Positions 51,128 through 64,000 are shown, counted from the stretch's first letter. The stretch is 64,000 bases of DNA from Thermodesulfovibrionales bacterium (GCA_044450345.1 JBIOIY010000003.1:64001-128000), one strand, 5' to 3'. Program-made: numbers and translations. The notes: generated by a model from the sequence alone, not told the origin.

Positions 51128-51299
51128 ATGTCTTACCTCAATATACTGTTATTACACTTCCGCAAGATCGGAGGCTAAGTAGTTTAACACATCTTTGCAT
51201 CTTGTATTGAGGTTACTGAGCGGTAACATATTTTTTATTTCAGATATGGAACACACCTCCTTATCCGCGGGCGCGAAGGAAATAAGCGACTTTCTCGCG

Positions 51300-51620
51300 C
51301 AGGTCGAAGAGGCCTTGTCGGTAAATTTGGCGGCTTTACTCAAGAGATTCGTAAGTATTTGCCTGACCTTGATAGGATCCAGCACTACATAGTGATTACT
51401 TGGATCAGCGATGACTTCTACATCCACTGGCTTGTTTCCCAGAAGTACGCGTGTTGTCTCACCGACCTCGCGCAGGGTCTCCGAGAGATCAAAACATTCA
51501 TAGATGACCTCCATCTTGCCGGCTTCGATCTTCGAAAGGTCGAGGATATTGGTGATAATCGCCCTGAGGTTGGTTGCGCTGAACATCAGGAGCGTCAGGC
51601 GGGTCCTCCCGTATAAAAGG
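51300..51620 (-). pseudogene. Histidine kinase remnant (end of HisKA plus N-box of HATPase)
   Basis: ILDLSKIEAGKME...DPIKVRQILTNLLSKAAKFT then homology stops; no H-box, no G-boxes; boundaries approximate. Confidence 0.75.
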
Positions 51621-51623
51621 TGA

Positions 51624-51815
51624 TCAGGCTGCCTTGATGTCGGCCTTGCAAGGCCCTCCGATGTATTCATCATTATTGTCAAAGAAAAACTGGGAATTAT
51701 AGGTATTACAATTTGTCCATCCGTCGCCATTGCAATTTTCTATCCTGGCACATTCCAGATGCCTCGGGCTCATTCCGACCATATCACAAATTGTTTCTTT
51801 CATATAGGGACACAT
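51624..51815 (-). CDS. Small Cys-rich protein, paralog A (63 aa)
   Basis: AAAGGAG RBS before ATG 51815; CPY..IC-x17-C-x4-W-x2-C-x2-Y. Confidence 0.7.
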   Translation of the reverse strand: MCPYMKETICDMVGMSPRHLECARIENCNGDGWTNCNTYNSQFFFDNNDEYIGGPCKADIKAA

Positions 51816-51874
51816 TTTGTTATCTCCTTTGATCATTTCGTTAAGGATTTGCTCGTCAAATGATTCGCAGAATA

Positions 51875-51917
51875 AGGTTAGCATACTCACGTTACATGAG
51901 TATGTCGGTTATATGAA
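51875..51917 (-). promoter_or_regulatory. Pho-box-like array plus -10 for paralog A
   Basis: TTCATA, GACATA, GTAACG at 11-bp period, then 9 nt and TGc-TAACCT. Confidence 0.5.
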
Positions 51918-52021
51918 ATTTTGAAGGCCTTTTGAAGAGAGCAGGTCTTGGCCGTTTTCCTCAGCCTGAGAAAAGCAAAAAAGCCTTCTCTTACGACAGC
52001 GGTAGTCCGATGTATGGTCTC

Positions 52022-52075
52022 TTAACGTAATTATAACGTTCACTTCATCATCCTGTAATAAAGAGTAATTACCAT
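52022..52075 (+). promoter_or_regulatory. Pho-box-like array plus -10 for dedA
   Basis: TTAACG/ATAACG/TTCATC/GTAATA at 52022/33/44/55, then 9 nt and TACCAT. Confidence 0.65.
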
Positions 52076-52096
52076 ATAAGCAATGAGGCGGCATTC

Positions 52097-52732
52097 GTGA
52101 GCGAATTATTTGCACTGGTTGAGCGGTTTCCCGGTATTGCATTATTTATCCTCCCTATTCTCGGAAGTATTGGACTCCCAATTCCCGAGGACGCTATATT
52201 ATTTTTGTGCGGCATATTGATTTCAAAAAAAAGCGTTTTACCCCTTCCCGGGCTTATGTCGGTATATGCCGGCATTTTGCTCAGTGATTTTCTTATCTAT
52301 TCCTTCGGGCGGAAATATGGCCGCTGGATTGTTACGCATAAGATATTCCTGAAAATACTTCCCCCCGAGAAGCTTGTCCAGTTGGAACGTGGATTCATCC
52401 GTTCGGGTCCTCTTATCATCCTGTTTGCCCGGCAATTCTTTTGGCTGCGCGCAAAAGTTTTTCTCGCAGCGGGCATAATGAAAATGCCGGTTAAAAAATT
52501 CCTGTTTATGGACGGCATCGCAGCCTTGTTTACGATCGGTGTTATCGTAACGCTTGGATATACAGGGGGGACTTTTCTGTCATATTTCAACCGTATTTTA
52601 CCTCAAATCGGCCGGATAAGCGGGATAGTGGTTGTTGTCATTGCGAGTATGGCTTTTATCTACTGGCTCTTAATCTTGCGAAACAGAAAAATATCTAAAG
52701 AGTCCAGGCTCCAGCTGAGCTGGCATAGGTGA
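52097..52732 (+). CDS. DedA-family membrane protein
   Basis: GLPIPED, D.LIY.FGRKYG, ARQFFWLR, AAG..KMP..KF. Confidence 0.9.
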   Translation: MSELFALVERFPGIALFILPILGSIGLPIPEDAILFLCGILISKKSVLPLPGLMSVYAGILLSDFLIYSFGRKYGRWIVTHKIFLKILPPEKLVQLERGFIRSGPLIILFARQFFWLRAKVFLAAGIMKMPVKKFLFMDGIAALFTIGVIVTLGYTGGTFLSYFNRILPQIGRISGIVVVVIASMAFIYWLLILRNRKISKESRLQLSWHR

Positions 52733-53439
52733 AAACCGGGTGTGAAATACTGCGTAGACTTCTTCTGGCGACGATCATTGCTTCTTTGTTTTTCATTGAA
52801 GCAGACGGGGCCGCGGCGGGCCTGCCATCTCAACTTTTAATCGGCTTTGACGGACCAACACGGGATAATGGTATGCCTCAGCAGCCGTGGACCGTCAGAC
52901 TCAGGGAAGGAAAAGCCGGCGCGAGGGTGACATCGGACGGAGAGAGAAAAGTGCTCCATCTGAAATGCCTGAACTCGTCTTTTGCCGTTGAACGGAGCCT
53001 TGCTGTTGTCCCCAGCGAGTACCCTCTGGTAAGTTGGGAATGGAAGGCGGTGAAACTGCCGGCATCCGGTGATCTTAGGGAAAAAAGGCGGAATGACCAG
53101 GCAATGCAGATACTACTCGTCTTTGAAGGGAACAGAGTCATCAGTTACGTCTGGGACTCCAATGCCCCTGAGGGGACGATCAGAGATGAGTCTATCGGAT
53201 GGCCGCTTAACCTTCGGGTCAAGGTACTTGTAGTAAAGTCAGGGCATGAAGGCGTTGATACATGGCTTACGGCAATGCGGAATATTTACGAAGACTATAA
53301 GGCCTTGTTTCACGAAGAGCCTCTCCGACTTGTGGGACTGCGGGTCCAGATGAACACACAATACACGAAAGACAGTGCCGAGGGCTTCGTGGGGAAGATC
53401 GCATTTTCTCAGGATTACAGGGCTGCGGTGAGCCGGTAA
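52729..53439 (+). CDS. DUF3047-like exported protein
   Basis: Signal peptide; YPLVSWEWK..LP..GD....NDQA, YVWD, RNIYEDYKALF. Confidence 0.75.
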   Translation: MKTGCEILRRLLLATIIASLFFIEADGAAAGLPSQLLIGFDGPTRDNGMPQQPWTVRLREGKAGARVTSDGERKVLHLKCLNSSFAVERSLAVVPSEYPLVSWEWKAVKLPASGDLREKRRNDQAMQILLVFEGNRVISYVWDSNAPEGTIRDESIGWPLNLRVKVLVVKSGHEGVDTWLTAMRNIYEDYKALFHEEPLRLVGLRVQMNTQYTKDSAEGFVGKIAFSQDYRAAVSR

Positions 53440-53497
53440 CCGGCTTATTCAAGATCTCTCGATTTCTGCATGCAAGCCTGCCGGGGAGCTCACGTTC

Positions 53498-53551
53498 TTC
53501 ATGATAATTTCATCAGGTTGTAATAATGACTTAACAAAAAGCGCGTATTAT
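53498..53551 (+). promoter_or_regulatory. Pho-box-like array plus -10 for the metallophosphoesterase gene
   Basis: TTCATG/TTCATC/GTAATA/TTAACA at 53498/509/520/531, then 9 nt and TATTAT. Confidence 0.65.
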
Positions 53552-53727
53552 TGGTATGCGAGAGTTTGTTCTTCTCAGCAGACGTTTAATCAACGAGAAA
53601 TATTCTGGGTCTTCCGGTAGAGGGGAGGAGGCGAGGGAACCGAAAATCAACTGCGGAAGGTAGAGGCGGCATGACAGGAGCAACTGGCAGGAAAACCAAT
53701 GTAAGCAGGCGAAGGAGGAATTTTGTA

Positions 53728-54885
53728 ATGTACCAAGAGAAGAAGGTATTTCGTTTCAAATCGGTAGTTACGTTTTCACTAAGCATGATAATGATCGCAG
53801 TGATGATGGTGAGTCTCGGCGGCTGTGGCAGTTCGTCCGATCCTCAGCCAGTGTTTAAGTTTGCCGTCTTCGACGACAGCCGGGCAGCCTCCGGCGCGAC
53901 GGGGACAAAAAACGGCGACAATAACGGTGCCGCGGCGCTCGTGGTGAACACCATTGCAAAGGACATTGCTACCCAGGGCGTAGATTTCGTTTTGTTTCCC
54001 GGCGACATGGTCAGCGGATATACCGACTCGACCACGTTAAGCTCTGAGTTGGACACCTGGAAAACAGCCATGGCGCCTGTCTACAGTGCCAACATCCCCG
54101 TCTATACCACTCGCGGAAACCACGAGTACGACGATCTGACCAATGGCACCGGCAACCCGGCTGATCCCAGCAGGGCGCCGTATCTGGCCCATTTCTCGAT
54201 GCCTACAAACGGACCGACGACCGGAGCTAACGGACTGAGTGAAGCGGGACTGACCTACTCCTTCACCTGGAAGAATGCGAAGATCATCGGGTTCGACCAA
54301 TATGCCGGTCGCAGCGCAACAACCTTCAACAACACCCTCTATGCGCCGGGTTCCAATAAAGGGCAGATGATGAACCCCTGGGTCCTCAACGAGGTCAATA
54401 ACTCCACCGCCGGCCTGACCTTTGTCATGGCCCACGAGGGTTTGTGGCCCACCAAGTCCCATCCCGACACCCTGGCCAACGACCCCGACAGCCGTGACGC
54501 CCTGGTGACCGCTTTGGCCGCAAAGAACGGCACGTATCTGGCCGGACATGACCACATGTTCCTCCGCGCCGTCACGAACAACGGCAGCGGCGGCAAGGTC
54601 CCGACGTTGGTCGTGGGCAGCGGCGGCGGAGGCAACTACGACTATGCCGAAGTGCCCTCCACTGTTTATAACGGCTACACCGGCAAGACTAATTACACTG
54701 TACAGAAGCACTTTGACAACAGCGCTAACCCATATTTCGGGTACGTGGTGATCACCGTCTATTCCGACAACACATGGAAAGGAGAATTCCACGGTTTCCA
54801 GTTCAACAAATGGAATGACGCAACAGACCACTCACTAACGCCGATCACGGTAATGGACTCATTCACTAGCGCTGACTTTAAATAA
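53728..54885 (+). CDS. Calcineurin-like metallophosphoesterase lipoprotein
   Basis: LGGC lipobox; FDDSR, PGDMV, RGNHE, MAHE, AGHDH; AAGGAGG RBS. Confidence 0.88.
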   Translation: MYQEKKVFRFKSVVTFSLSMIMIAVMMVSLGGCGSSSDPQPVFKFAVFDDSRAASGATGTKNGDNNGAAALVVNTIAKDIATQGVDFVLFPGDMVSGYTDSTTLSSELDTWKTAMAPVYSANIPVYTTRGNHEYDDLTNGTGNPADPSRAPYLAHFSMPTNGPTTGANGLSEAGLTYSFTWKNAKIIGFDQYAGRSATTFNNTLYAPGSNKGQMMNPWVLNEVNNSTAGLTFVMAHEGLWPTKSHPDTLANDPDSRDALVTALAAKNGTYLAGHDHMFLRAVTNNGSGGKVPTLVVGSGGGGNYDYAEVPSTVYNGYTGKTNYTVQKHFDNSANPYFGYVVITVYSDNTWKGEFHGFQFNKWNDATDHSLTPITVMDSFTSADFK

Positions 54886-54924
54886 ACAGACACGATGGCC
54901 CTGAAGGGTTCGGCTTGCAACGAG

Positions 54925-54955
54925 AAAGCCGCCGGGAAGATCCCCGGCGGCTTTT
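54925..54955. terminator. Bidirectional terminator
   Basis: AAAGCCGCCGGG-loop-CCCGGCGGCTTTT. Confidence 0.85.
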
Positions 54956-55033
54956 ATTGTCTGGATACGACGGAAGATACGTGAGGCCGGAGGCGCAGAG
55001 GTCCAGACCGGAGACCTCTGCCGGGGCATGATT

Positions 55034-56392
55034 CTATAACAATTTTGCGCCCTGCTGGGCCAACCGGGACCTTACGCTCTCGCTCAGATTCAGGAAACAG
55101 AAGTTCTCCTCCTGTATGAACTTACTGATCAGATATGCGAGTCCGTTGCTCATGGCATCCAGATAAGGTGTATCTATCTGATCGAGGTCGCCGGTGAAGA
55201 CGATTTTAGTCCCCTCGCCGCATCTCGTGATGATCGTTTTGACATCCAACGGCCGGAGGTTCTGGGCCTCATCAATGATGAAGTATCTCCTCGGCAGGCT
55301 TCTTCCCCGGATATAGGTAAGGGCCTCGATCTGGAGCACGCCTGAATCGATCAAATATTGAAAACTCTTATATCCATAGAGGGCGGTATTGTCCTTTACC
55401 TGGTCTTTCGGCGTGCGTACTATGACCTCGAGACTATCGAAGATCGGCTGCATCCAGGGCGCAAGTTTCTCGCCCACATCTCCGGGAAGGTAGCCGATAT
55501 CATTTCCCATAGGAACAATCGGTCTTGCCACGACTACCTGCTCGTAGAGGGGCGATTTTTTCGTTGTCTGATGTATTGCGGCGGCCAGAGCGAGGAGGGT
55601 TTTGCCTGTTCCCGCGGTTCCGGTCAACGCCACAACCTCGATATCGGGGTTGATCAGGGCATCGATTGCGCATCGCTGCTCGATGTTCTTCGGAGATATG
55701 CCATCGAGCGATTTGCCATTTCTGATCTTTGATGCGCCGTCCCTTCCAATCAGCCGATATATATCATCGGCTTCTTTCAGATACCTGACGGAATGAATGC
55801 CGTTACGGTAATCACCATCGTTCAGAACTTTCCCGTACTGTTTGAATATCGATGTCTTGTCGTTTTTGTAATCCTCCGCATTAAGACCGAAAGACTCGGC
55901 CTTTATTCTTACCGCAGTGTCCTTTGACACCAGTATCACGCGAGGCGCCACCCCGTTTTTGTCCAGGGATTCAGATCTGGCGATTGAAAGGGCGGTGCTG
56001 ATGATCTGGTTGTCCTCAACGCTGCAGTCAAGGGTAGAAGGCGCCGCCTCATTCTGCCCGGTGCTGACTAAAAGGACACCGCCCTGCTTCAGGGTTATCC
56101 CGGACGAGAGAGAACCTCTTTCCCTCAGGGAGTCTATTATCCTCAAGACCTTCCTCGCAGAAGCTGCAATTTCTCCCGGGCCTTTTTTTAGCCTGTCAAG
56201 CTCTTCGATTACGACAAAGGGGATTACAATATCGTTCTCATCGAACCTGAAGATCGAACTTGGATCGTGAATCAGGACATTGGTATCGAGCACGAAGATT
56301 TTTTTTGTCTCTTCCGGTTCCCTTTCACCGCAATAGTGATGCAAGGGACTTTTCAATTCGGACACCTTGTTCATAGGACCCTCCGTAGACAT
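55034..56392 (-). CDS. phoH: PIN-PhoH (PhoH2/YlaK-type) protein
   Basis: FVLDTNVLIHDP PIN domain; GTAGTGKT, GYLPG, YIRGRSL, DEAQNL, GDLDQID. Confidence 0.93.
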   Translation of the reverse strand: MSTEGPMNKVSELKSPLHHYCGEREPEETKKIFVLDTNVLIHDPSSIFRFDENDIVIPFVVIEELDRLKKGPGEIAASARKVLRIIDSLRERGSLSSGITLKQGGVLLVSTGQNEAAPSTLDCSVEDNQIISTALSIARSESLDKNGVAPRVILVSKDTAVRIKAESFGLNAEDYKNDKTSIFKQYGKVLNDGDYRNGIHSVRYLKEADDIYRLIGRDGASKIRNGKSLDGISPKNIEQRCAIDALINPDIEVVALTGTAGTGKTLLALAAAIHQTTKKSPLYEQVVVARPIVPMGNDIGYLPGDVGEKLAPWMQPIFDSLEVIVRTPKDQVKDNTALYGYKSFQYLIDSGVLQIEALTYIRGRSLPRRYFIIDEAQNLRPLDVKTIITRCGEGTKIVFTGDLDQIDTPYLDAMSNGLAYLISKFIQEENFCFLNLSESVRSRLAQQGAKLL

Positions 56393-56538
56393 ATTTTATT
56401 TAAAGCGGGAAAGTGCCGGAAAATAAATCGACAGGGGAATAAAGCATACTGCAGGCCGCAGGGAAATGCGTCATGGCCGAAAATTCTTGCAGCGGCGCTA
56501 TGTAACTGAGTCAAGATAGCTGCCATTCAATTAGTTAC

Positions 56539-56581
56539 ATTATGGCATACAATTGTTACAGTAACGTTACGTTTCTGATAA
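56539..56581 (-). promoter_or_regulatory. Pho-box-like array plus -10 for phoH
   Basis: TTATCA/GTAACG/GTAACA at 11-bp period on the minus strand, then 9 nt and TGc-CATAAT. Confidence 0.6.
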
Positions 56582-56682
56582 ATTACATCTTCGAAAAATA
56601 AAATCCTTGATAAATCTTATTAATTTCCGCTGCGGTATTGAAGGACCTCGACGGATCAAGCAGGTAAACACGGCCTCGCGAT

Positions 56683-56736
56683 TTCATGGATGTGTAACGG
56701 CATCGTCATCGAATGGTAAAGTTGCCGGTGTATAGT
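56683..56736 (+). promoter_or_regulatory. Pho-box-like array plus -10 for mgsA
   Basis: TTCATG/GTAACG/GTCATC/GTAAAG at 56683/694/705/716, then 9 nt and TATAGT. Confidence 0.65.
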
Positions 56737-56768
56737 ACATGGTAACTACCAGGAAAGGGGAGTGACAT

Positions 56769-57254
56769 ATGGATAAGAAGACAAAGGAGATTTTCATGAG
56801 AGAGCGGAAGAAGATAGCCCTCGTTGCTCATGACAACAAGAAAAAAGACCTGCTCGAGTGGGTGCTTTATAACAAGGACGTGCTGTTGGCGCATGATTTG
56901 TACGCGACAGGAAGTACCGGAAGCATGCTCTCGGGAGCTTTGGATACCCCCGTATACTGCTTCAAAAGCGGGCCCCTCGGTGGAGACCAGCAGATAGGGG
57001 CGAAGATTGCTGAAGGAGAGATTAATCTCGTTATTTTTTTCTGGGACCCCCTGGAGCCCCATCCCCACGATGTCGACGTAAAGGCCCTTCTCAGAATAGC
57101 CGTTGTGTACAATATTCCTATCGCTTGCAACAGGGCATCGGCCGACTTTATCATTTCCTCACACCTCCTGAACGAACAATACCCGAGGATCGTGGTTGAT
57201 TACGAAAGTGTCCAGATTGCCAGGAACAATGAATTGAATGATCCGTCCCGATAA
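56769..57254 (+). CDS. mgsA: Methylglyoxal synthase
   Basis: IALVAHD.KK, ATGSTG, SGPLGGDQQIG, FWDPL.PHPHDVDVKALLR. Confidence 0.97.
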   Translation: MDKKTKEIFMRERKKIALVAHDNKKKDLLEWVLYNKDVLLAHDLYATGSTGSMLSGALDTPVYCFKSGPLGGDQQIGAKIAEGEINLVIFFWDPLEPHPHDVDVKALLRIAVVYNIPIACNRASADFIISSHLLNEQYPRIVVDYESVQIARNNELNDPSR

Positions 57255-57334
57255 TGTGAAGTGAGTCGGCCGGACAGCGGTGAGGGCGGGAATCGGTAGC
57301 TCGGCGTAGGCCCGTCAAAGTCCGCAAGACATTT

Positions 57335-57388
57335 GTAATAGAAATGTAATGTTTCCTTCACACTGCGGTAATATTTGTCCTTTACACT
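57335..57388 (+). promoter_or_regulatory. Pho-box-like array plus -10 for the second phoB
   Basis: GTAATA/GTAATG/TTCACA/GTAATA at 57335/46/57/68, then 9 nt and TACACT. Confidence 0.68.
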
Positions 57389-57428
57389 AATCATACCCTA
57401 TGACACCTGATCTTAACATATAGGCATT

Positions 57429-58124
57429 ATGCCTGATATTCACAAAATTCTTGTTGTTGACGACGAACCTGATATTGTCGATTTGGTGTCCTACAATCTC
57501 AAAAAAGAGGGTTTTACCGTATCCACGGCATCTGACGCGGAAGAGACATTGGAAAAAATCAGGACGGGGGACTTTTCCCTTATTCTCCTCGATCTGATGC
57601 TCCCCGGCATGCAGGGCATGGAACTCTGCCGGATCCTCAAGAAGGACGCCAAAACAGAAAATCTCCCCATTATCATGCTTACGGCAAAGGTCGAAGAAGT
57701 CGACAGGGTCCTCGGCCTTGAGTCCGGCGCTGACGACTATATCACAAAGCCCTTCAGCCCAAGGGAACTGGTTGCGCGTGTCAAGGCAGTCCTGAGGAGG
57801 TCGGCCTCGAAGGCCGCAGATGAGGATATTATTCGGATCGGAGAACTCATCATCAACAAGGGAACCTATACGGTGACAAAGGGTGATTCACTCTTAGATC
57901 TCAGCGCCACCGAGTTTAAACTGCTTCTCTATCTTATAGAAAAAAAAGGGAAGATATGCGACCGGGAGCATCTGTTGAAGGCCGTATGGAAATACGATGC
58001 CTACGTTGAACCGAGGACAATCGATGTTCACATAAGAAGGCTTAGGACACAACTTGAAGACGACCCTGCAAATCCCAGGCATATCAAAACGAAGAGGGGG
58101 ATCGGTTATTATTTTGAGGCATGA
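57429..58124 (+). CDS. phoB: OmpR/PhoB-family response regulator (PhoB-like, copy 2; no adjacent kinase)
   Basis: Close paralog of 47337..48038 (LDLMLPG.QGMELCRIL; EPRTIDVHIRRLR..EDDP.NP..IKTKRGIGYY). Confidence 0.82.
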   Translation: MPDIHKILVVDDEPDIVDLVSYNLKKEGFTVSTASDAEETLEKIRTGDFSLILLDLMLPGMQGMELCRILKKDAKTENLPIIMLTAKVEEVDRVLGLESGADDYITKPFSPRELVARVKAVLRRSASKAADEDIIRIGELIINKGTYTVTKGDSLLDLSATEFKLLLYLIEKKGKICDREHLLKAVWKYDAYVEPRTIDVHIRRLRTQLEDDPANPRHIKTKRGIGYYFEA

Positions 58125-59380
58125 CAAACCCTAACAAGAGAACTTCTTCCGACACTGGATTCCTCTGGGGTGTAGCAACATCCGCCTTTCAACTCGAAGG
58201 CTCGCCCTATGCGGACTGGACGACGTGGGATGAAATACTAAGTGAAAAGCCCGACATCACCAATCATTACATCCTCTATAAGGAGGACCTGGCCTTATTA
58301 AAAGACCTCGGCGTAAACGCCTACCGTTTTTCTCTCGAATGGAGCAGGATACAGCCGCGCGAAAGAGTCTGGGACGAGAAGGCGATAAGACATTATCAGG
58401 AAATTGTCGAGATACTCGTGGACAACCACATTGAACCGATGCTTACCCTGAATCACTTCACTCATCCCTTCTGGTTCATGAAAAAATATCCATGGCATGA
58501 AGATGCATCGGTCGAAAAATTCCTCATCTTTGTGGAAAAGATGGTCCGGACATTTGAAGGGGTGAGGTATTGGATCACATTCAATGAACCGTATGTGCTT
58601 GTCCTCGCCGGCTATTTTGAGGGCTGTACGCCCCCCGCTATCAAAGATGCATCGCTGGGGGTGAAAGCCTTGACGAACATCCTTAAGGCCCATGGGCGGG
58701 CCTATGATGTAATCCATTCACATATTCCGGATGCGATGGTGAGCATAGCGCACAATATGGCATCATTTGCCCCATGGAGCAAATGGAACCCCCTTGACAG
58801 ACTCCTCGTAAAGATCGCGAAACACTTTTACAACCATTCCCTTCTGGATGCTTTTCTGAGCGGCTCCCTAAGTATCAAATTCCCATTCAGGAAGGCGATC
58901 GAAATCGCAGTCCCTATCAAGGGTAAGCTGGACTTTTTCGGCGTCAACTACTACACAAGGATGCATCTTCGCTTCAATCCATTAAAAAAAATGGGGATTG
59001 AGATGAGACACAGGGACATCGACGGGCACGGACTTACCGACATGGGATGGGAAATCCACCCTCGAGGGCTCGAAAAGGTCCTGCGCAACGCGTCGAAACT
59101 AAACGTTCCCCTGATAATTACGGAAAACGGCATTGCCACCCGCGACAGTCAGAAGAAGATACGGTTTATGCAGCGGCACATTGATGTTCTGGAGAAGTGC
59201 AGACGGGAAGGGAGGGACATCAGAGGATATTTTTACTGGACCCTGATCGACAACTACGAATGGCTCCAAGGGCTTGATTCGCGGTTTGGGCTGTATACCG
59301 TTGACTTTCAGACCCTGGAACGCAGACCGACGAACGCAGCTGCATACTATTCATATCTTATTAAGAGCAGAAAGCTCTGA
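58121..59380 (+). CDS. Glycoside hydrolase family 1 (beta-glucosidase-like)
   Basis: FLWGVATSAFQLEG, YRFSLEWSRI, TFNEP, ITENG, DNYEW; ATGA-coupled to phoB copy 2. Confidence 0.95.
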   Translation: MTNPNKRTSSDTGFLWGVATSAFQLEGSPYADWTTWDEILSEKPDITNHYILYKEDLALLKDLGVNAYRFSLEWSRIQPRERVWDEKAIRHYQEIVEILVDNHIEPMLTLNHFTHPFWFMKKYPWHEDASVEKFLIFVEKMVRTFEGVRYWITFNEPYVLVLAGYFEGCTPPAIKDASLGVKALTNILKAHGRAYDVIHSHIPDAMVSIAHNMASFAPWSKWNPLDRLLVKIAKHFYNHSLLDAFLSGSLSIKFPFRKAIEIAVPIKGKLDFFGVNYYTRMHLRFNPLKKMGIEMRHRDIDGHGLTDMGWEIHPRGLEKVLRNASKLNVPLIITENGIATRDSQKKIRFMQRHIDVLEKCRREGRDIRGYFYWTLIDNYEWLQGLDSRFGLYTVDFQTLERRPTNAAAYYSYLIKSRKL

Positions 59381-59410
59381 TCTGCTGCTTTTTCTTCCTC
59401 ACCCGTAATC

Positions 59411-59464
59411 TTAACAAGAATGTAATCCTTCCTTAATGATGCCGTAACGATCATATCGTAAGCT
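59411..59464 (+). promoter_or_regulatory. Pho-box-like array plus -10 for the PHP-GT operon
   Basis: TTAACA/GTAATC/TTAATG/GTAACG at 59411/22/33/44, then 9 nt and TAAGCT. Confidence 0.68.
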
Positions 59465-59502
59465 AACAACAGTATGGTAAACAAATTGAGAATTAGGCCG
59501 TA

Positions 59503-60195
59503 ATGCTGCTGTGTGATTTCCATATCCACACTACCTATTCAGACGGCTCGGTGGAGCTGAGAAGGACAATCGATTTATTCGGACAGGCAGGCTTCGATGT
59601 CATTGCAATAACAGACCATGTGGTGAATGGTGATAATCCACTGGGCAAACTTGCACATCGTTTTAAGTATTCTGTAACAGCCGCTAACTTTGGCAAATAT
59701 ATCTCCCACATAAAAGAAGAAGCGGAAAGGGCCCAGGACAAATATGACATGCTCGTCATCCCCGGAATTGAAATAACCAAAAACCATCTCAGCCCGGACA
59801 ACTCAGCCCACATGCTGATCATCGATATCCAGGACTTTATCCCCGCCTGCATGGGGTATGAAGAGATATTCCTGGCGGCGAAGAAACAGAAAGCCCTGAC
59901 GATAGCTTGCCACCCGCATTATATGTCGGCGAAGAGCGACCGGGACACGCTTTTTCTCTGGAACAACAGGGAAAAATATGCACGCTACATCGATGCCTGG
60001 GAGATCGCTAACAGAGATGACGTCTTCAATGTTATTAGCCTGAAAAAGTATCCTTATATCGCAAACAGCGACTTCCATAAGCCCAGACATCTTTACTCCT
60101 GGAAGACGCTTCTGAATTGCGCGAAGGGCATAGACTCCATAAAGCAGTGCATCAGACATAACAAGGGTGTTGCATTGACGCTCTTCAGAAATTAG
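59503..60195 (+). CDS. PHP-domain metal-dependent phosphoesterase
   Basis: DFHIHTTYSDG, AITDH, GIEIT, CHPH, NSDFH. Confidence 0.9.
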   Translation: MLLCDFHIHTTYSDGSVELRRTIDLFGQAGFDVIAITDHVVNGDNPLGKLAHRFKYSVTAANFGKYISHIKEEAERAQDKYDMLVIPGIEITKNHLSPDNSAHMLIIDIQDFIPACMGYEEIFLAAKKQKALTIACHPHYMSAKSDRDTLFLWNNREKYARYIDAWEIANRDDVFNVISLKKYPYIANSDFHKPRHLYSWKTLLNCAKGIDSIKQCIRHNKGVALTLFRN

Positions 60196-60198
60196 GAG

Positions 60199-61413
60199 GT
60201 GAACATGATTTTATTCTGGATCTTTGCAGGCATTACCTGCTTTGGGATGATCGGATATCTGCTTCAAATTGTCGCGGTCCGGTCATATACGGCTCCCCCC
60301 AACTCAGGGGAAAGCATGCGCTTTCCCCGATCTTTTTCTCCTGTCTCAATCCTTAAACCGCTCAAAGGTCTTGATGACGGCCTGTTCGACAACCTCGAAA
60401 GCTTCTGCAATCTTGATTATCCTCACTATGAGATCATCTTTGCACTGCAGAACCAGAATGACCCGGCCCATAAAGTGGTAAGGAAGATAAAGGAGAAATA
60501 CCCTTTAAAAGACATAACCATTGTCGTCGAACATTGCGATGAGGGGCTGAACCCCAAAGTAAACAATCTTATCCCGGCGTACAAAAGGGCCAAATATGAC
60601 CTTATATTGATCAGCGACAGTAATGTCCGCGTGGGAAAAGACTATCTGGCGGATATTTCTCAGCACATGGATGACCCGTCTGTGGGGCTTGTCAGCAATA
60701 TGATCAGGGGCGTAAGCGGTCGGTCCCTTGGCGCCGTTATGGAAAATCTCCACCTGAACTCCTTTATAGTGGGAAGCGTCTGCTTCCTCGACAAATATCT
60801 CAAGATGCCTTGTGTCGTGGGCAAGTCAATGCTGATGAGGAAGACCGACCTCGAAGCTATAGGGGGTTTCTCGTCCGTAAAGGACTTTCTTGCGGAGGAC
60901 TACATCATCGGCGAAAGAATTCACGCGCTCGGCAAAAGGGTCGTCCTTTCCTGTCATCTTATCAATAATGTCAATGAATACTGGGGCGTAAAGAGGTTTT
61001 TAAACCGTCATACAAGATGGGGAAAGCTGAGATGGCACATCGGAGGCGCAAAGTATTTCTCTGAATTGGCCGGCAATGCCGTGTTCATGTCCTTTATGCC
61101 GGTGGTCATAATGCCGATGTCCAAAGTGTCTTTATTGTTGGCTGCGGCCGTCAGTTCCCTGAAAATAGTTCATGATTTCTACATCGGCAAAAAACTTCGT
61201 GCTGATATGAATCCCCTTCTCTATTTGTTGTCCCCTGTCAAGGACCTTATTATCGGATTCGTATGGTTTGTGCCGATCCTGAGCAACACCGTGGCCTGGA
61301 GAGGCAACAGATATATCATCGGCAAGGACTCGGTGCTCTCACGCTATCCCGATGACAGTTTCTGGTCGTGGCGGTACAGGATCATGGACGTAATAAAAAC
61401 AAGGATTGCATAG
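60199..61413 (+). CDS. Ceramide glucosyltransferase-like (GT21/HpnI-like) glycosyltransferase
   Basis: SILKPLKG, NPKVNNL, ISDSNV, LAEDY, RHTRW, VAWRG; N- and C-terminal TM; start 60199 or 60205. Confidence 0.88.
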   Translation: MNMILFWIFAGITCFGMIGYLLQIVAVRSYTAPPNSGESMRFPRSFSPVSILKPLKGLDDGLFDNLESFCNLDYPHYEIIFALQNQNDPAHKVVRKIKEKYPLKDITIVVEHCDEGLNPKVNNLIPAYKRAKYDLILISDSNVRVGKDYLADISQHMDDPSVGLVSNMIRGVSGRSLGAVMENLHLNSFIVGSVCFLDKYLKMPCVVGKSMLMRKTDLEAIGGFSSVKDFLAEDYIIGERIHALGKRVVLSCHLINNVNEYWGVKRFLNRHTRWGKLRWHIGGAKYFSELAGNAVFMSFMPVVIMPMSKVSLLLAAAVSSLKIVHDFYIGKKLRADMNPLLYLLSPVKDLIIGFVWFVPILSNTVAWRGNRYIIGKDSVLSRYPDDSFWSWRYRIMDVIKTRIA

Positions 61414-61437
61414 CGCATGCATGATAAGGAGGTGCCA

Positions 61438-61647
61438 GTGCATTGCTCGCTCAATCAAATCCCGACTGACAATCGGTTGCACGCGGACCATTCCTGCTGC
61501 CCTTACAATGGTGCAGCCACCGGCATATGTTCCGCATCCCTTTCTACAATGATGATTGTTCCAAGCATGAGGGAAGGATATTGCGAAAATGAGAATTACG
61601 ATAATTGCCCTATTTTCTTATCCAAAATCCTGAGAAAAAAGACATAA
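61438..61647 (+). CDS. Small Cys-rich protein, paralog B
   Basis: AAGGAGG RBS before GTG 61438; CPY..IC-x17-C-x4-Y-x2-C-x2-F. Confidence 0.7.
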   Translation: MHCSLNQIPTDNRLHADHSCCPYNGAATGICSASLSTMMIVPSMREGYCENENYDNCPIFLSKILRKKT

Positions 61648-61674
61648 TCCGTGTCTTCTTATATGGAGGTGTGC

Positions 61675-62046
61675 GTGACGCAACAGAAAAAGATACTTAT
61701 CATCGATGACGACATCCGATATCTTGTTGATGCGAAACGCTGTTTGCAGTCTCGTGGCTATGCGGTGAGTATCCATGAGTATTCAGCCGGCTCGCCTGTC
61801 ATGATCAGAAATATGAAGCCGGATGTTGTGTTACTCAATATCAGAATGGGTGACCTGTCCGAGGAGAAACTATCATACCTCCTCGGTGCAAACCGGCATG
61901 CACGGGGAGTTCCCGTGGTATTCTATTCCTCCCATGACGAGGAAGGCCTCAGGAATGCCGCCGTCCGCCACGAGGCCGAGGGATATATCCGCAAAGGCGA
62001 CGTCTCCCTGCTTTGCGATGAGATAGGTGTTTTTTGTCCCCATTGA
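61675..62046 (+). CDS. Single-domain receiver protein with Asn at the phosphoacceptor position
   Basis: KKILIIDDD, PDVVLLNIRM, VPVVFYSS, GYIRK; GGAGG RBS. Confidence 0.82.
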   Translation: MTQQKKILIIDDDIRYLVDAKRCLQSRGYAVSIHEYSAGSPVMIRNMKPDVVLLNIRMGDLSEEKLSYLLGANRHARGVPVVFYSSHDEEGLRNAAVRHEAEGYIRKGDVSLLCDEIGVFCPH

Positions 62047-62081
62047 ATCGAGAAACAAGATTTACTTGAGGAGATCAAAAG

Positions 62082-62651
62082 GTGGAGAAGAGAAGCATGG
62101 ATAAAATCGCAATCATTGATATAGACAATACTTTGTGGCAGTTCAGCGATGCCTTCTTTGAAGAACTGAGAAAGATAAACAAGGACTTCCCGACACCGGA
62201 AAACTGGACACATTGGTGGAGTATATGGCAGGGATATTGTACTGAGCAGGATTTTTATGGGGCGATAAATGCTATTCACATGAAGCAAGACAGCGACAAT
62301 TATCAGCCCTATCCTGAAGCCAAAAGCTTCCTTTCGGGGATGAAACAAAGTGGCTATCATATCACCATAGCGAGTCACCGTTCCCCTGAGTTTATGGACC
62401 AGACTGAGAGATGGCTGAAAAAGCACGGATTGCTGCATGACGATATCTACCTGTCCCACCATAAGACCGAGTTATTCAATACAGAGACAAATGTGGTGGT
62501 GGACGATGCACCAGAGGTATTGGAGAGGGCAGTTGAGAATGGAGCGTTAGCAACGGGATTATTATTTCCCTGGAATCGTGCCTTTCGTAATAATGGGTTC
62601 AGGCTTTGCAGTAACCTTGATGAGATATTGGATGGTATCCTGAAGCAGTGA
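62082..62651 (+). CDS. HAD-superfamily 5'(3')-nucleotidase-like protein
   Basis: IDIDNTL motif I, IASHR, TERWL, VVDD motif IV, PWN. Confidence 0.78.
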   Translation: MEKRSMDKIAIIDIDNTLWQFSDAFFEELRKINKDFPTPENWTHWWSIWQGYCTEQDFYGAINAIHMKQDSDNYQPYPEAKSFLSGMKQSGYHITIASHRSPEFMDQTERWLKKHGLLHDDIYLSHHKTELFNTETNVVVDDAPEVLERAVENGALATGLLFPWNRAFRNNGFRLCSNLDEILDGILKQ

Positions 62652-62973
62652 GTATATCTATCCCGGAAAAAACCGGTGTTCAACAAGGATGGTGATTTAA
62701 TCTGGTATACGGAGGCAGCTACCTTTTGTTGAAACGTATAGAAAGATTGATCGCTATTATAATTGATCTGTTAAAAAGCCTTGCATTGCTTGAGTATTCG
62801 GTTGATATCCTTGAATCGGTCGAAAAAACCCACGGGGGCGGAATTAATTCTTCTGATTAATGTTTGCAGTACGTGCACGAGAGACGCAAAATCATTTCTC
62901 CAACAGGAAAGCATGATATATCAAGTCGTCTTTCAATTTAATGACCCGTGCATCCTTGGTTTTAAAGCAGGTG

Positions 62974-63585
62974 TTATATTTTGACCAGATCGAGTGTCAC
63001 CTTGATAGCCGCTCCGATCAGTGCGGCTTCTTCTTTGCTCATCTCGCCCAGGCTACCGCGTCTTTCTGTCATTCTCCGGAAACGCGTGAAGTCCGTCGGT
63101 AGTGCTTCGGTGTCTATCAAATACGCGATCCCCTGAATAATCTCGCCTATTCTTTCCGGAGATTTTGCTTCTCCTTCCAGTTTGGCGAAATACTGAACCT
63201 TGATTTTCGCCCTGGTGACGTCATAGTCCACGTCCTTCACGCGATGAAGCGCCAGAATTGCGTAATCGCCTAGGGCTTGCCAGAATAGTTCGTCATATTC
63301 TTGCCACTTTGGCAGCGAGAAGCGCAGTAACGCGGGCCTTTTTCTTCCTATCTGCGGGATGCATTTTTCAAGCGCGACAACTAAATCCCCAACCTTGTTC
63401 TTGTCTATCTGATCAAGCATCTCATATAGCTTGCGCCGCTGATGTCTCCGAAGGAGCTTCTCGATCTGCTCCAATACGTTCCCCTGTCCAGGGTGCGTGC
63501 CTAATTTATCGAGAACATTGTTCGTTGATTTATCCATGACATTCCTTCCCGGGACGCTGTCTTTTCTAGATGATACTTGACACAT
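62974..63585 (-). CDS. Hypothetical protein
   Basis: 203-aa ORF with helical, protein-like composition; no recognised motif; start may be ~63537. Confidence 0.5.
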   Translation of the reverse strand: MCQVSSRKDSVPGRNVMDKSTNNVLDKLGTHPGQGNVLEQIEKLLRRHQRRKLYEMLDQIDKNKVGDLVVALEKCIPQIGRKRPALLRFSLPKWQEYDELFWQALGDYAILALHRVKDVDYDVTRAKIKVQYFAKLEGEAKSPERIGEIIQGIAYLIDTEALPTDFTRFRRMTERRGSLGEMSKEEAALIGAAIKVTLDLVKI

Positions 63586-63723
63586 CGGGATGAGTCAAGC
63601 GGTGAATGGTTTGGGTAGAGAGACTCACCTTTGTCCGCCCGGCAGGGCTCAAACCGGAACAGGTGGCCCGGCTAAATCGGAATCAATAGTCTGAATACTC
63701 CGAAAAATGCTTTTCCCCTTGAT

Positions 63724-63800
63724 GTAATAAGAAACATTTATACATGTAACAGAAAATTAACACTCCTTTAATAATCCATTAACAGACCGTTTGCTATGCT
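63724..63800 (+). promoter_or_regulatory. Pho-box-like array plus -10 for paralog C
   Basis: GTAATA 63724, GTAACA/TTAACA/TTAATA/TTAACA at 63746/57/68/79, then 10 nt and TGc-TATGCT. Confidence 0.72.
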
Positions 63801-63819
63801 ACTGACCAGGGAGGCAACT

Positions 63820-64000
63820 ATGAATATACAATACATTATCTGTCCCCATCTTAAAGGCAGTTATGACGGAGCGGTCTGCAGCAGCGTCAGCAAGTTGATC
63901 AAGAACATAGAAGACGTCACCATTAAATTGTGTATGGGCAGGCATTACGAGGTATGCTCGATATATCGGGAGTCTCTGCTCCCTCAGGAGCCTGTCAGTG
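63820..64000 (+). CDS. Small Cys-rich protein, paralog C (runs off the window end; absent from the ORF track)
   Basis: GGAGG RBS; MNIQYIICPHLKGSYDGAVC-x17-CMGRHYEVCSIY. Confidence 0.72.
   Translation, partial: MNIQYIICPHLKGSYDGAVCSSVSKLIKNIEDVTIKLCMGRHYEVCSIYRESLLPQEPVS

Follow-up and report, generated by a model that had tools for sequence, protein, structure and literature searches.

Three small genes, named A, B, and C in this study, were analyzed in a 64,000-nucleotide stretch of DNA from a Thermodesulfovibrionales bacterium (GCA_044450345.1, JBIOIY010000003.1:64001-128000), referred to below as the window. With high confidence, A, B, and C are real genes that encode members of an undescribed protein family with four invariant cysteines, and B and C, together with a further member named D that lies 690 nt beyond the window end, form a conserved cassette of a phosphate-regulon-type gene cluster and share its operator. 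The original prediction, made from the window itself, had described A, B, and C as micro-proteins of one candidate family that may modulate two-component signaling under phosphate limitation. Regarding their function, we tentatively propose that the four-cysteine module binds a metal and serves receiver domains or kinases as an accessory partner.

The open reading frames of A, B, and C were found with the coordinates and the cysteine strings originally given. Start codons were chosen from ribosome-binding sites. AAAGGAG precedes the ATG of A at 51815, AGGAGG precedes the GTG of B at 61438, and GGGAGG precedes the ATG of C at 63820, in agreement with the strong Shine-Dalgarno sites claimed for each gene. 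The start taken for A is the ATG ahead of its C-P, and M-x-C-P is the protein N-terminus in most of the paralogs. An alternative start of B at the upstream ATG 61417 was rejected, as it lacks an AGGAGG-type site and is not kept in the closest relative. The stop codon of C is at contig position C3:128008, 8 nt beyond the window. No N-terminal hydrophobic stretch is present in A, B, or C, as expected from the claim that the proteins carry no signal peptide.

The predicted common spacing, C-x17-C-x7-C, is present in A, B, and C, with an aromatic residue or His three residues ahead of the fourth cysteine. The family motif is C-P-x10-C-x17-C-x7-C-P. The first loop of A is x7 versus x10 in the family, and the fifth conserved cysteine of A lies within the x17 stretch. 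The pattern CP-x4-13-C-x17-C-x7-C was searched in the six-frame open segments of the 3.19-Mb genome and gave 11 matches, of which eight are family members and three are unrelated. The chance expectation for the four-cysteine pattern is about 0.06 matches per 64-kb window; therefore, its occurrence in A, B, and C exceeds chance.

Nine profile matches were obtained in the genome, with expectation values (E) from 3e-21 to 2e-12. They were named A, B, C, D, E, F, G, H, and I. A strong ribosome-binding site is present upstream of eight of the nine. E, F, and G are solitary genes, each on other contigs, and I and H form a translationally coupled pair on contig C27. A group II intron-type reverse transcriptase reading frame (581 amino acids, judged by sequence motifs) lies 0.6 kb upstream of G (L004:5378-7123, contig C26). 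Membership of J, a small reading frame between C and D, is not supported: its four cysteines are at different spacings, and in a search of only 4 sequences its profile E is 0.013.

The profile of the nine paralogs was searched against 1.84 billion representative proteins. With E <= 1e-3, 787 representative clusters were matched, of which 26 reached E <= 1e-10; the matched proteins are almost all 52-100 amino acids long. The four cysteines are kept in all 261 fetched homologs (261/261). Among the 273 motif matches within these homologs, the x10 spacing is found in 226, x17 in 240, and x7 in 270, and proline follows the first cysteine in 263 and the fourth cysteine in 228. A profile built only from 134 homologs of other sources (Z = 3000) recovered B at 8e-14, C at 1e-5, and A at 7e-5; paralog I was not recovered by this outside-only profile. 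Family members were found in 29 of 41 close relatives, among them all 7 of the other genomes of the genus (5-13 matches per genome), and in 107 of 301 genomes sampled across the phylum. When a 10-row alignment of the E subfamily was used as the query, 20 related public loci were found, with titles of Nitrospirae, Nitrospiraceae, or Thermodesulfovibrionales metagenome-assembled genomes.

The claim that the family is undescribed was upheld by the database comparisons. Pfam and NCBIfam contain no match, and public homologs are named only 'hypothetical protein'. No Pfam-A family was matched by A, B, or C at E <= 10, scans of Pfam, NCBIfam, and PHROGs with the micro-proteins and 14 homologs gave no model over the module, and the family profile had no match among PDB sequences at E <= 10. 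The ESM Atlas contained only unnamed 'hypothetical protein' clusters, mostly from Nitrospirota, and no earlier description of the family was found in open-access texts.

Phylogenetic analysis of 58 modules was performed by maximum likelihood. A C-type clade, spanning 10 genomes and including I as well as A on a long branch, was supported at 97/96. The support values of the B/F, D/H, and E/G clades are 99/95, 81/87, and 98/91, respectively. Every subfamily includes orthologs from several genera and families, and D represents the type with the strongest conservation. This indicates that A, B, and C come from different subfamilies and are not recent copies of one another. The picture of three dispersed micro-proteins was therefore replaced: A, B, and C belong to different old subfamilies, B, C, and D constitute a conserved cassette, and the genome contains at least nine copies.

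The ratio of nonsynonymous to synonymous substitution rates (dN/dS) was calculated pairwise against G004, the closest relative, where the region is syntenic. Purifying selection, which had been proposed as a check on the family, was found for all three genes, with dN/dS of 0.08 for A (52 codons, 46/52 residues identical), 0.08 for B (69 codons, 63/69 identical), and 0.18 for C (62 codons, 57/62 identical). The value for D is 0.18, and that for J is 0.28. In the closest relative, J and D occupy a single open frame without an intervening stop (L047:16219-16644); here they are two genes with a 10-nt gap. The very small size of the proteins and their lack of annotation in most records would be compatible with chance reading frames or precursors of modified peptides. 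Such an explanation is extremely improbable, given dN/dS of 0.08-0.28 for these five genes, hundreds of homologs with invariant cysteines, the occurrence of the module as a domain of larger proteins, and the absence of a radical-SAM or other maturase gene conserved nearby in the 20 comparison loci described next.

The B/C/D cassette is placed in a phosphate-starvation island. On the plus strand, the genes of an OmpR-type regulator, a GH1 glycosidase, a PHP-domain protein, a GT21 glycosyltransferase, B, a receiver, and a HAD phosphatase follow one another with short gaps, and a PIN-PhoH gene is located upstream on the minus strand (Table 1). Past the window end, the order is C, HMA_2, J, D, a DUF5132/HMA_2/P-type-ATPase module, metK, and OlsB/OlsA-like acyltransferases, and pstS, pstC, pstB, and phoU are in the same island, 19 kb after D. 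Twenty comparison loci from other genomes were collected with at least two family matches close together as the sole criterion. A recurrent order was observed among them, namely regulator, GH1, PHP, GT21, B, C, (ArsC-like), D, pstS, pstC, pstA, and pstB. Across genera, the cassette is kept between the PhoB-like regulator/GH1/PHP/GT21 block and pstSCAB-phoU. Within 3.5 kb of the cassette, pstS was found in 11/20 loci, GT21 in 11/20, and PHP in 9/20, and some phosphate-type marker, with PsiE, PhoH, and alkaline phosphatase included, was present in 15/20. A separate count covered the 23 relatives having both a family match and a pstS match. A family gene is within 2.5 kb of pstS in 10 of the 23 and within 20 kb on the same contig in 14; in the remaining 9 the two are on different contigs or distant, and these 9 include a single-contig genome with a nearest distance of about 180 kb.

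A shared operator further connects B, C, and D with the phosphate genes. The promoter of C contains five [G/T]TAA[C/T] units at exact 11-bp steps, and the last unit is 10 nt ahead of a TATGCT hexamer, a putative -10 element. This promoter is the sole site in the genome with four in-phase TTAACA-like units at no more than one mismatch. The strict four-unit TTAACA pattern was replaced by the looser [G/T]TAA[C/T] pattern, with at least three of four units in phase, and the whole genome was scanned on both strands. Thirteen matches were found, three of them with 4/4 units. Twelve of the 13 are within C3:121-148 kb, ahead of the regulator, PHP, C, pstS, and three other island genes (C3:141177, 142645, and 147723). 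Three block-shuffled genomes gave 0, 3, and 2 matches, none with 4/4 units.

The arrays are conserved. The array ahead of the regulator gene and that in the GH1-PHP gap are both matched in the closest relative (L047:8023 and, at the same place, L047:10211), and the array ahead of C-type genes is kept in G004, G014, G019, G003, and G251. Related loci contain 52 matches in 237 kb, distributed over 16 of 21 loci, where they precede pstS, C-type genes, B-type genes, and the gene that opens a four-gene array. Five related loci without phosphate genes had no operator array, and arrays were also seen in loci of other families of the phylum. The Pho-box-like promoters predicted for C directly and for B through its PHP-GT operon are thus represented by arrays of the pstS kind. 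Upstream of A, no operator array was found here or in the closest relative, and the promoter predicted for A was not confirmed. Placement in a phosphate-regulon-type cluster is supported for B and C, which have the pstS-like operator and synteny with pstSCAB.

The Pho consensus sequences of E. coli and Bacillus are direct repeats with an 11-nt period, bound by PhoB/PhoP-type regulators. The TGTAACA-like arrays ahead of the PHP-GT21-B operon and of C are of the same 11-bp-periodic pstS type and are presumably bound by the adjacent PhoB-like regulator. B, C, and D would then be transcribed within the phosphate-starvation regulon in this lineage and be induced at low phosphate. The sequencing runs listed as containing the stretch are 20 DNA runs, with no RNA run among them. 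Binding units in the form of 11-nt direct repeats are described for PhoP in PMC2275107.

Table 1 Features of the window discussed in this study, with positions counted from its first nucleotide.
Feature	Position	Strand	Description
Histidine-kinase fragment	51152..51730	minus	Overlaps the 3' end of A in a different frame; no Pfam match
A	51624..51815	minus	Four-Cys micro-protein, 63 amino acids
PIN-PhoH-like ATPase	55034..56392	minus	Pfam PhoH 3e-48, PIN_4 1.5e-32
Operator array	57335..57373	plus	Precedes the regulator gene; 3/4 [G/T]TAA[C/T] units with an 11-bp step
OmpR-family response regulator	57429..58124	plus	Pfam Response_reg and Trans_reg_C; best match PhoB
GH1 glycosidase	58121..59380	plus	Pfam Glyco_hydro_1 1.5e-81
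Operator array	59411..59460	plus	Between GH1 and PHP; precedes the PHP-GT21-B operon with 4/4 units
PHP-domain metallo-phosphoesterase	59503..60195	plus	Pfam PHP 1.3e-7
Membrane glycosyltransferase family 21 (GT21)	60199..61413	plus	Pfam Glyco_transf_21 1.3e-47
B	61438..61647	plus	Four-Cys micro-protein, 69 amino acids; conserved basic tail F-L-A/S-K-x-L-R-R/K-R/K
Stand-alone receiver	61651..62046	plus	Pfam Response_reg 3e-11; begins 4 nt after B
HAD-family nucleotidase-like phosphatase	62082..62651	plus	Pfam Hydrolase, NT5C
Operator array	63724..63784	plus	Five in-phase units, 36 nt before the start of C (scan matches 63724-63757)
C	63820..64000	plus	Four-Cys micro-protein, 62 amino acids; truncated by the window end

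Several island genes were characterized further. Against the NCBIfam PhoB model TIGR02154, the regulator scored 267 bits, under the cut-off of 296 and level with YycF. GH1 follows the regulator in five other loci (L049, L051, L053, and L062 among them) and adjoins PHP in L052 and L059. An OlsB-like and OlsA-like acyltransferase pair is present in the island (L001:11075-12759; best NCBIfam matches, under cut-offs), and in L050 such a pair lies between D and pstS. Together with the PHP and GT21 genes, the pair suggests a low-phosphate switch to phosphorus-free lipids. Window positions 52930-55031 and 56622-57333 differ from the closest relative: extra DNA here carries a DUF3047 gene and a 404-amino-acid metallophosphoesterase, and the methylglyoxal-synthase region does not align with that genome. 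Positions 62040-63621 also differ, with the HAD phosphatase and a 203-amino-acid minus-strand reading frame of no family.

Metal-related genes near the cassette raise the alternative that the micro-proteins are carriers or buffers of a metal or metalloid (zinc, iron, or arsenite from Pst-imported arsenate), co-induced to protect or load enzymes. An ArsC-like low-molecular-weight phosphatase is encoded inside the cassette, between C and D, in four of the 20 loci (L049, L052, L054, and L062); its best NCBIfam match is thioredoxin-type arsenate reductase at 127 and 115 bits, under the cut-off. ArsA is present in one locus and hemerythrin beside D in two, and the phosphate response here may include the handling of arsenate. 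HMA_2 genes alternate with C, J, and D, which also adjoin the DUF5132/P-type ATPase module. This module comprises one or more HMA_2 genes, DUF5132, a 242-amino-acid repeat protein, and a 1019-amino-acid P-type ATPase with an HMA_2 N-terminus (L001:4144-9782, C3:128144-133782), and in another family, three genomes (L076, L077, and L080) have the HMA_2/DUF5132/P-type ATPase set next to a D-type gene together with pstCAB-phoU. The module may be a phosphate-controlled cation pump or storage body. However, a single site per 60 residues makes a poor buffer, and a carrier role would not explain why the four-cysteine module is fused to receivers and adjacent to kinase and regulator genes in lineages without phosphate or metal genes. 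We consider the carrier explanation unlikely.

The connection with two-component signaling was observed both in the window and beyond it. The neighbors originally named for A and B were recognized. Over 97 residues, the kinase remnant beside A shares 75% identity with positions 203-299 of a 389-residue kinase in the kinase-receiver-four-Cys cassette of G011, and the remnant lacks the N-terminal 200 and the C-terminal 90 residues. The pseudo-receiver beside B is an ortholog of the receiver of that cassette. It has Asn in place of the phospho-accepting Asp only in this genome and the closest relative (2 of 8 aligned), and the other 6 orthologs keep Asp. The gene order in G011 is GT21, EAL, kinase, receiver, B-like, A-like, J-like, D-like, pstS, and in G316, G185, and G040 it is (PsiE), CBS-kinase, receiver, (C), B, D, pstSCAB. 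Hence the arrangement kinase-receiver-B-(A-like)-D-pstS or kinase-receiver-C-B-D-pstS is found in four genomes. The kinase fragment and the Asn-bearing receiver, seen both here and in the closest relative, indicate that this genus split up and partly disabled the kinase/receiver pair and retained the micro-proteins.

Direct fusion of the module to a receiver was also found. A D/H-type module and a full receiver form one protein of 184-189 amino acids in G010, G024, and G009, which represent two genera, and these receivers score 84-89 bits against Pfam Response_reg over residues 63-184. A PAS-kinase and a sigma-54 regulator precede the I-H pair here, in G002, and in G005. Upstream of I-H, a palindrome TGTGGC...GCCACA and a GG-N10-GT element at sigma-54 spacing, with T for the usual -12 GC, are kept in three species (L005:2563-3470 on C27, L055, and L060). 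A strict sigma-54 promoter search upstream of the nine paralogs gave none, and the GG-N10-GT variant was found upstream of I only. A 178-amino-acid protein of G079 (L070:2206-2742) consists of the four-cysteine module, a membrane helix, and an outer domain without a Pfam match, a layout resembling that of membrane-anchored anti-sigma factors.

Fifteen further loci, chosen on score alone from other families of the phylum, made up a second sample. A receiver-bearing gene was found within 3 kb in 8/15 loci and as the immediate neighbor in 7/15, and Pst or PhoU genes were found within 3 kb in 5/15. The seven immediate neighbors are two cases of kinase/sigma-54 regulator/module, two of kinase/LuxR regulator/module, two free receivers, and one divergent OmpR regulator. 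An immediate receiver neighbor is expected for roughly 6% of genes (98 receiver matches per 3.19 Mb). The receiver fusions and the adjacency to kinase and regulator genes in unrelated lineages lend weight to the proposed link with two-component systems.

The evidence is best explained if A, B, and C belong to a single old family of small cytoplasmic proteins, in each of which four invariant cysteines form one site that most likely holds zinc or an iron-sulfur cluster. The module would act as an accessory partner, or 'third component', of receiver domains and/or kinases; the micro-proteins would modulate the output of two-component systems and could make this output responsive to metal or redox status. 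Several points weigh against this explanation. A gene that follows a kinase/regulator pair could be a target of the pair and not a partner, and the I/H pair has its own sigma-54-like promoter. Here and in the closest relative, the kinase is a fragment and the receiver lacks Asp, yet the micro-proteins are under selection. Paralogs E, F, and G have no signaling or phosphate neighbors, 3 of the 15 loci of the second sample have neither receiver nor phosphate genes, and many relatives are fused to a GcvH-like domain and not to a signaling domain. The AlphaFold models of B and E are only moderately confident, with mean predicted local distance difference test (pLDDT) values of 65.8 and 67.1 (E core, 75-83). 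On the first point, the adjacent regulator types vary (sigma-54, LuxR, OmpR, and free receiver) and the module is fused to receivers, which favors a partner of the shared receiver or kinase parts over a shared target gene. On the second, the persistence of selection despite the broken kinase and receiver indicates that the role of the micro-proteins is not wholly dependent on phosphotransfer.

In the AlphaFold models, the predicted shape is a beta-hairpin with the first and second cysteines, a short strand, a helix ending at the third cysteine, and a second helix after the fourth. Foldseek comparison of the two models with the PDB gave nothing at E <= 0.001, and VIA-align wide gave best Z values of 2.8 and 2.5, with no fold assigned. 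As the model confidence is moderate, the missing structural neighbor is no proof of a new fold. A predicted complex of the receiver, B, and zinc scored 0.00, the partner's own fold being uncertain. The structural comparisons also bear on the alternative that the module is a free-standing output domain, a zinc-finger-like binder of nucleic acid or RNA polymerase of the WhiB type, so that the micro-proteins would be small regulators of transcription or RNA. In the fusions, the module does occupy the place of an effector domain beside the receiver. Arg of the basic tail is invariant in the B subfamily alignment (16/16 rows), and small size, four cysteines, and many paralogs (5-13 per genome in the genus) are WhiB-like traits. 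The tail is basic only in the B/F subfamily, however, and acidic or neutral in C, D, and A, and no likeness to DNA-binding families was found in fold or sequence with Pfam, Foldseek, or VIA-align. An output domain is considered improbable, and an accessory partner remains the preferred explanation.

The GcvH-like fusions represent another architecture of the family. The word-based search with a nine-row profile missed the fused forms, which were found by exhaustive profile search and by a query with a fused protein. Many proteins of 230-320 amino acids carry two tandem modules and a GcvH-like domain, and the nine-paralog profile matches both N-terminal repeats. Of 14 homologs scanned, four exceeded the Pfam GCV_H cut-off of 22.2, and one more scored 21.7. 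The search with one tandem-module-GcvH protein gave 566 proteins at E <= 1e-5, and the source names of the fusions include Eisenbacteria, Bacteroidota/Ignavibacteriales, and Acidobacteriota. The abundance of these fusions, the invariant cysteines with proline after the first and the last, and the anaerobic lifestyle of the hosts would agree with small iron-sulfur electron carriers or redox partners, for example for the GcvH-like proteins that bear two fused modules in other phyla. Nevertheless, no oxidoreductase is conserved beside the B-C-D cassette in the 20 loci, and neither Pfam nor the PDB showed a resemblance to ferredoxin, rubredoxin, or HiPIP models. An electron carrier is very unlikely. 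The output-domain, metal-carrier, and electron-carrier alternatives each account for some of the observed context.

A wider form of the accessory-partner proposal would embrace both architectures. The module would be an unrecognized, widespread signal-transduction domain, an iron-sulfur or zinc sensor or partner that docks on receivers and couples redox or metal status to two-component output. The Nitrospirota set of three to four paralogs (B, C, and D, with or without A and J) would gate the phosphate-starvation response, and elsewhere two copies would be wired to a GcvH-like carrier. This form is speculative, and we regard it as rather doubtful.

Small proteins are routinely missed, and most of the homologs here are unannotated or named 'hypothetical'. 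The family is large and occurs in several phyla without a Pfam or NCBIfam model, and it now has a testable setting, namely the phosphate-starvation cluster of Nitrospirota and, more broadly, two-component systems. Should the module prove to bind receivers or kinases, bacterial signaling would gain a new class of accessory component, and metal or redox state would have a possible way into phosphate control. For a poorly studied and mostly uncultured phylum, the analysis also supplies a regulon map and a candidate Pho operator.

The closest functional precedent, unrelated in sequence, is the DUF1127 family, which we take to be Pfam PF06568. According to PMC12501420, DUF1127 small proteins (in Agrobacterium, and YjiS in E. 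coli) bind the kinase PhoR and control phosphate uptake. They resemble the four-cysteine proteins in being very small and cytoplasmic, in having several paralogs, and in being tied to pst control. Contact with a two-component protein is demonstrated there, whereas for the four-cysteine proteins it is suggested by genomic context. No sequence relation to DUF1127 was found in Pfam-A at E <= 10, and DUF1127 proteins do not have the four-cysteine site.

The WhiB-like (Wbl) proteins of actinobacteria share small size (60-120 amino acids in Wbl), four invariant cysteines, many paralogs, and richness in one lineage. Wbl proteins have a C-xn-C-x2-C-x5-C motif, carry a [4Fe-4S] cluster, and bind a sigma factor. 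Their four cysteines hold a cofactor and their roles are regulatory, but the host phylum and the partners differ from those of the present family. Membership in the WhiB-like family was rejected: the spacing here is x10/x17/x7, and Pfam Whib (presumably PF02467) was unmatched at E <= 10. Zinc-ribbon, rubredoxin-like, and treble-clef fingers likewise are small domains with a four-cysteine metal site, and the model obtained here has an N-terminal beta-hairpin and short helices. Those folds have two C-x2-C knuckles, a pattern that the present proteins do not follow, as there is no C-x2-C pair among the four conserved cysteines, the closest of which are 7 residues apart. The tandem-module GcvH-like proteins, publicly named 'glycine cleavage system H protein', contain the same module as A, B, and C. 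Unlike these fusions, which occur in other phyla, the genes of the window encode single free modules in a phosphate cluster.

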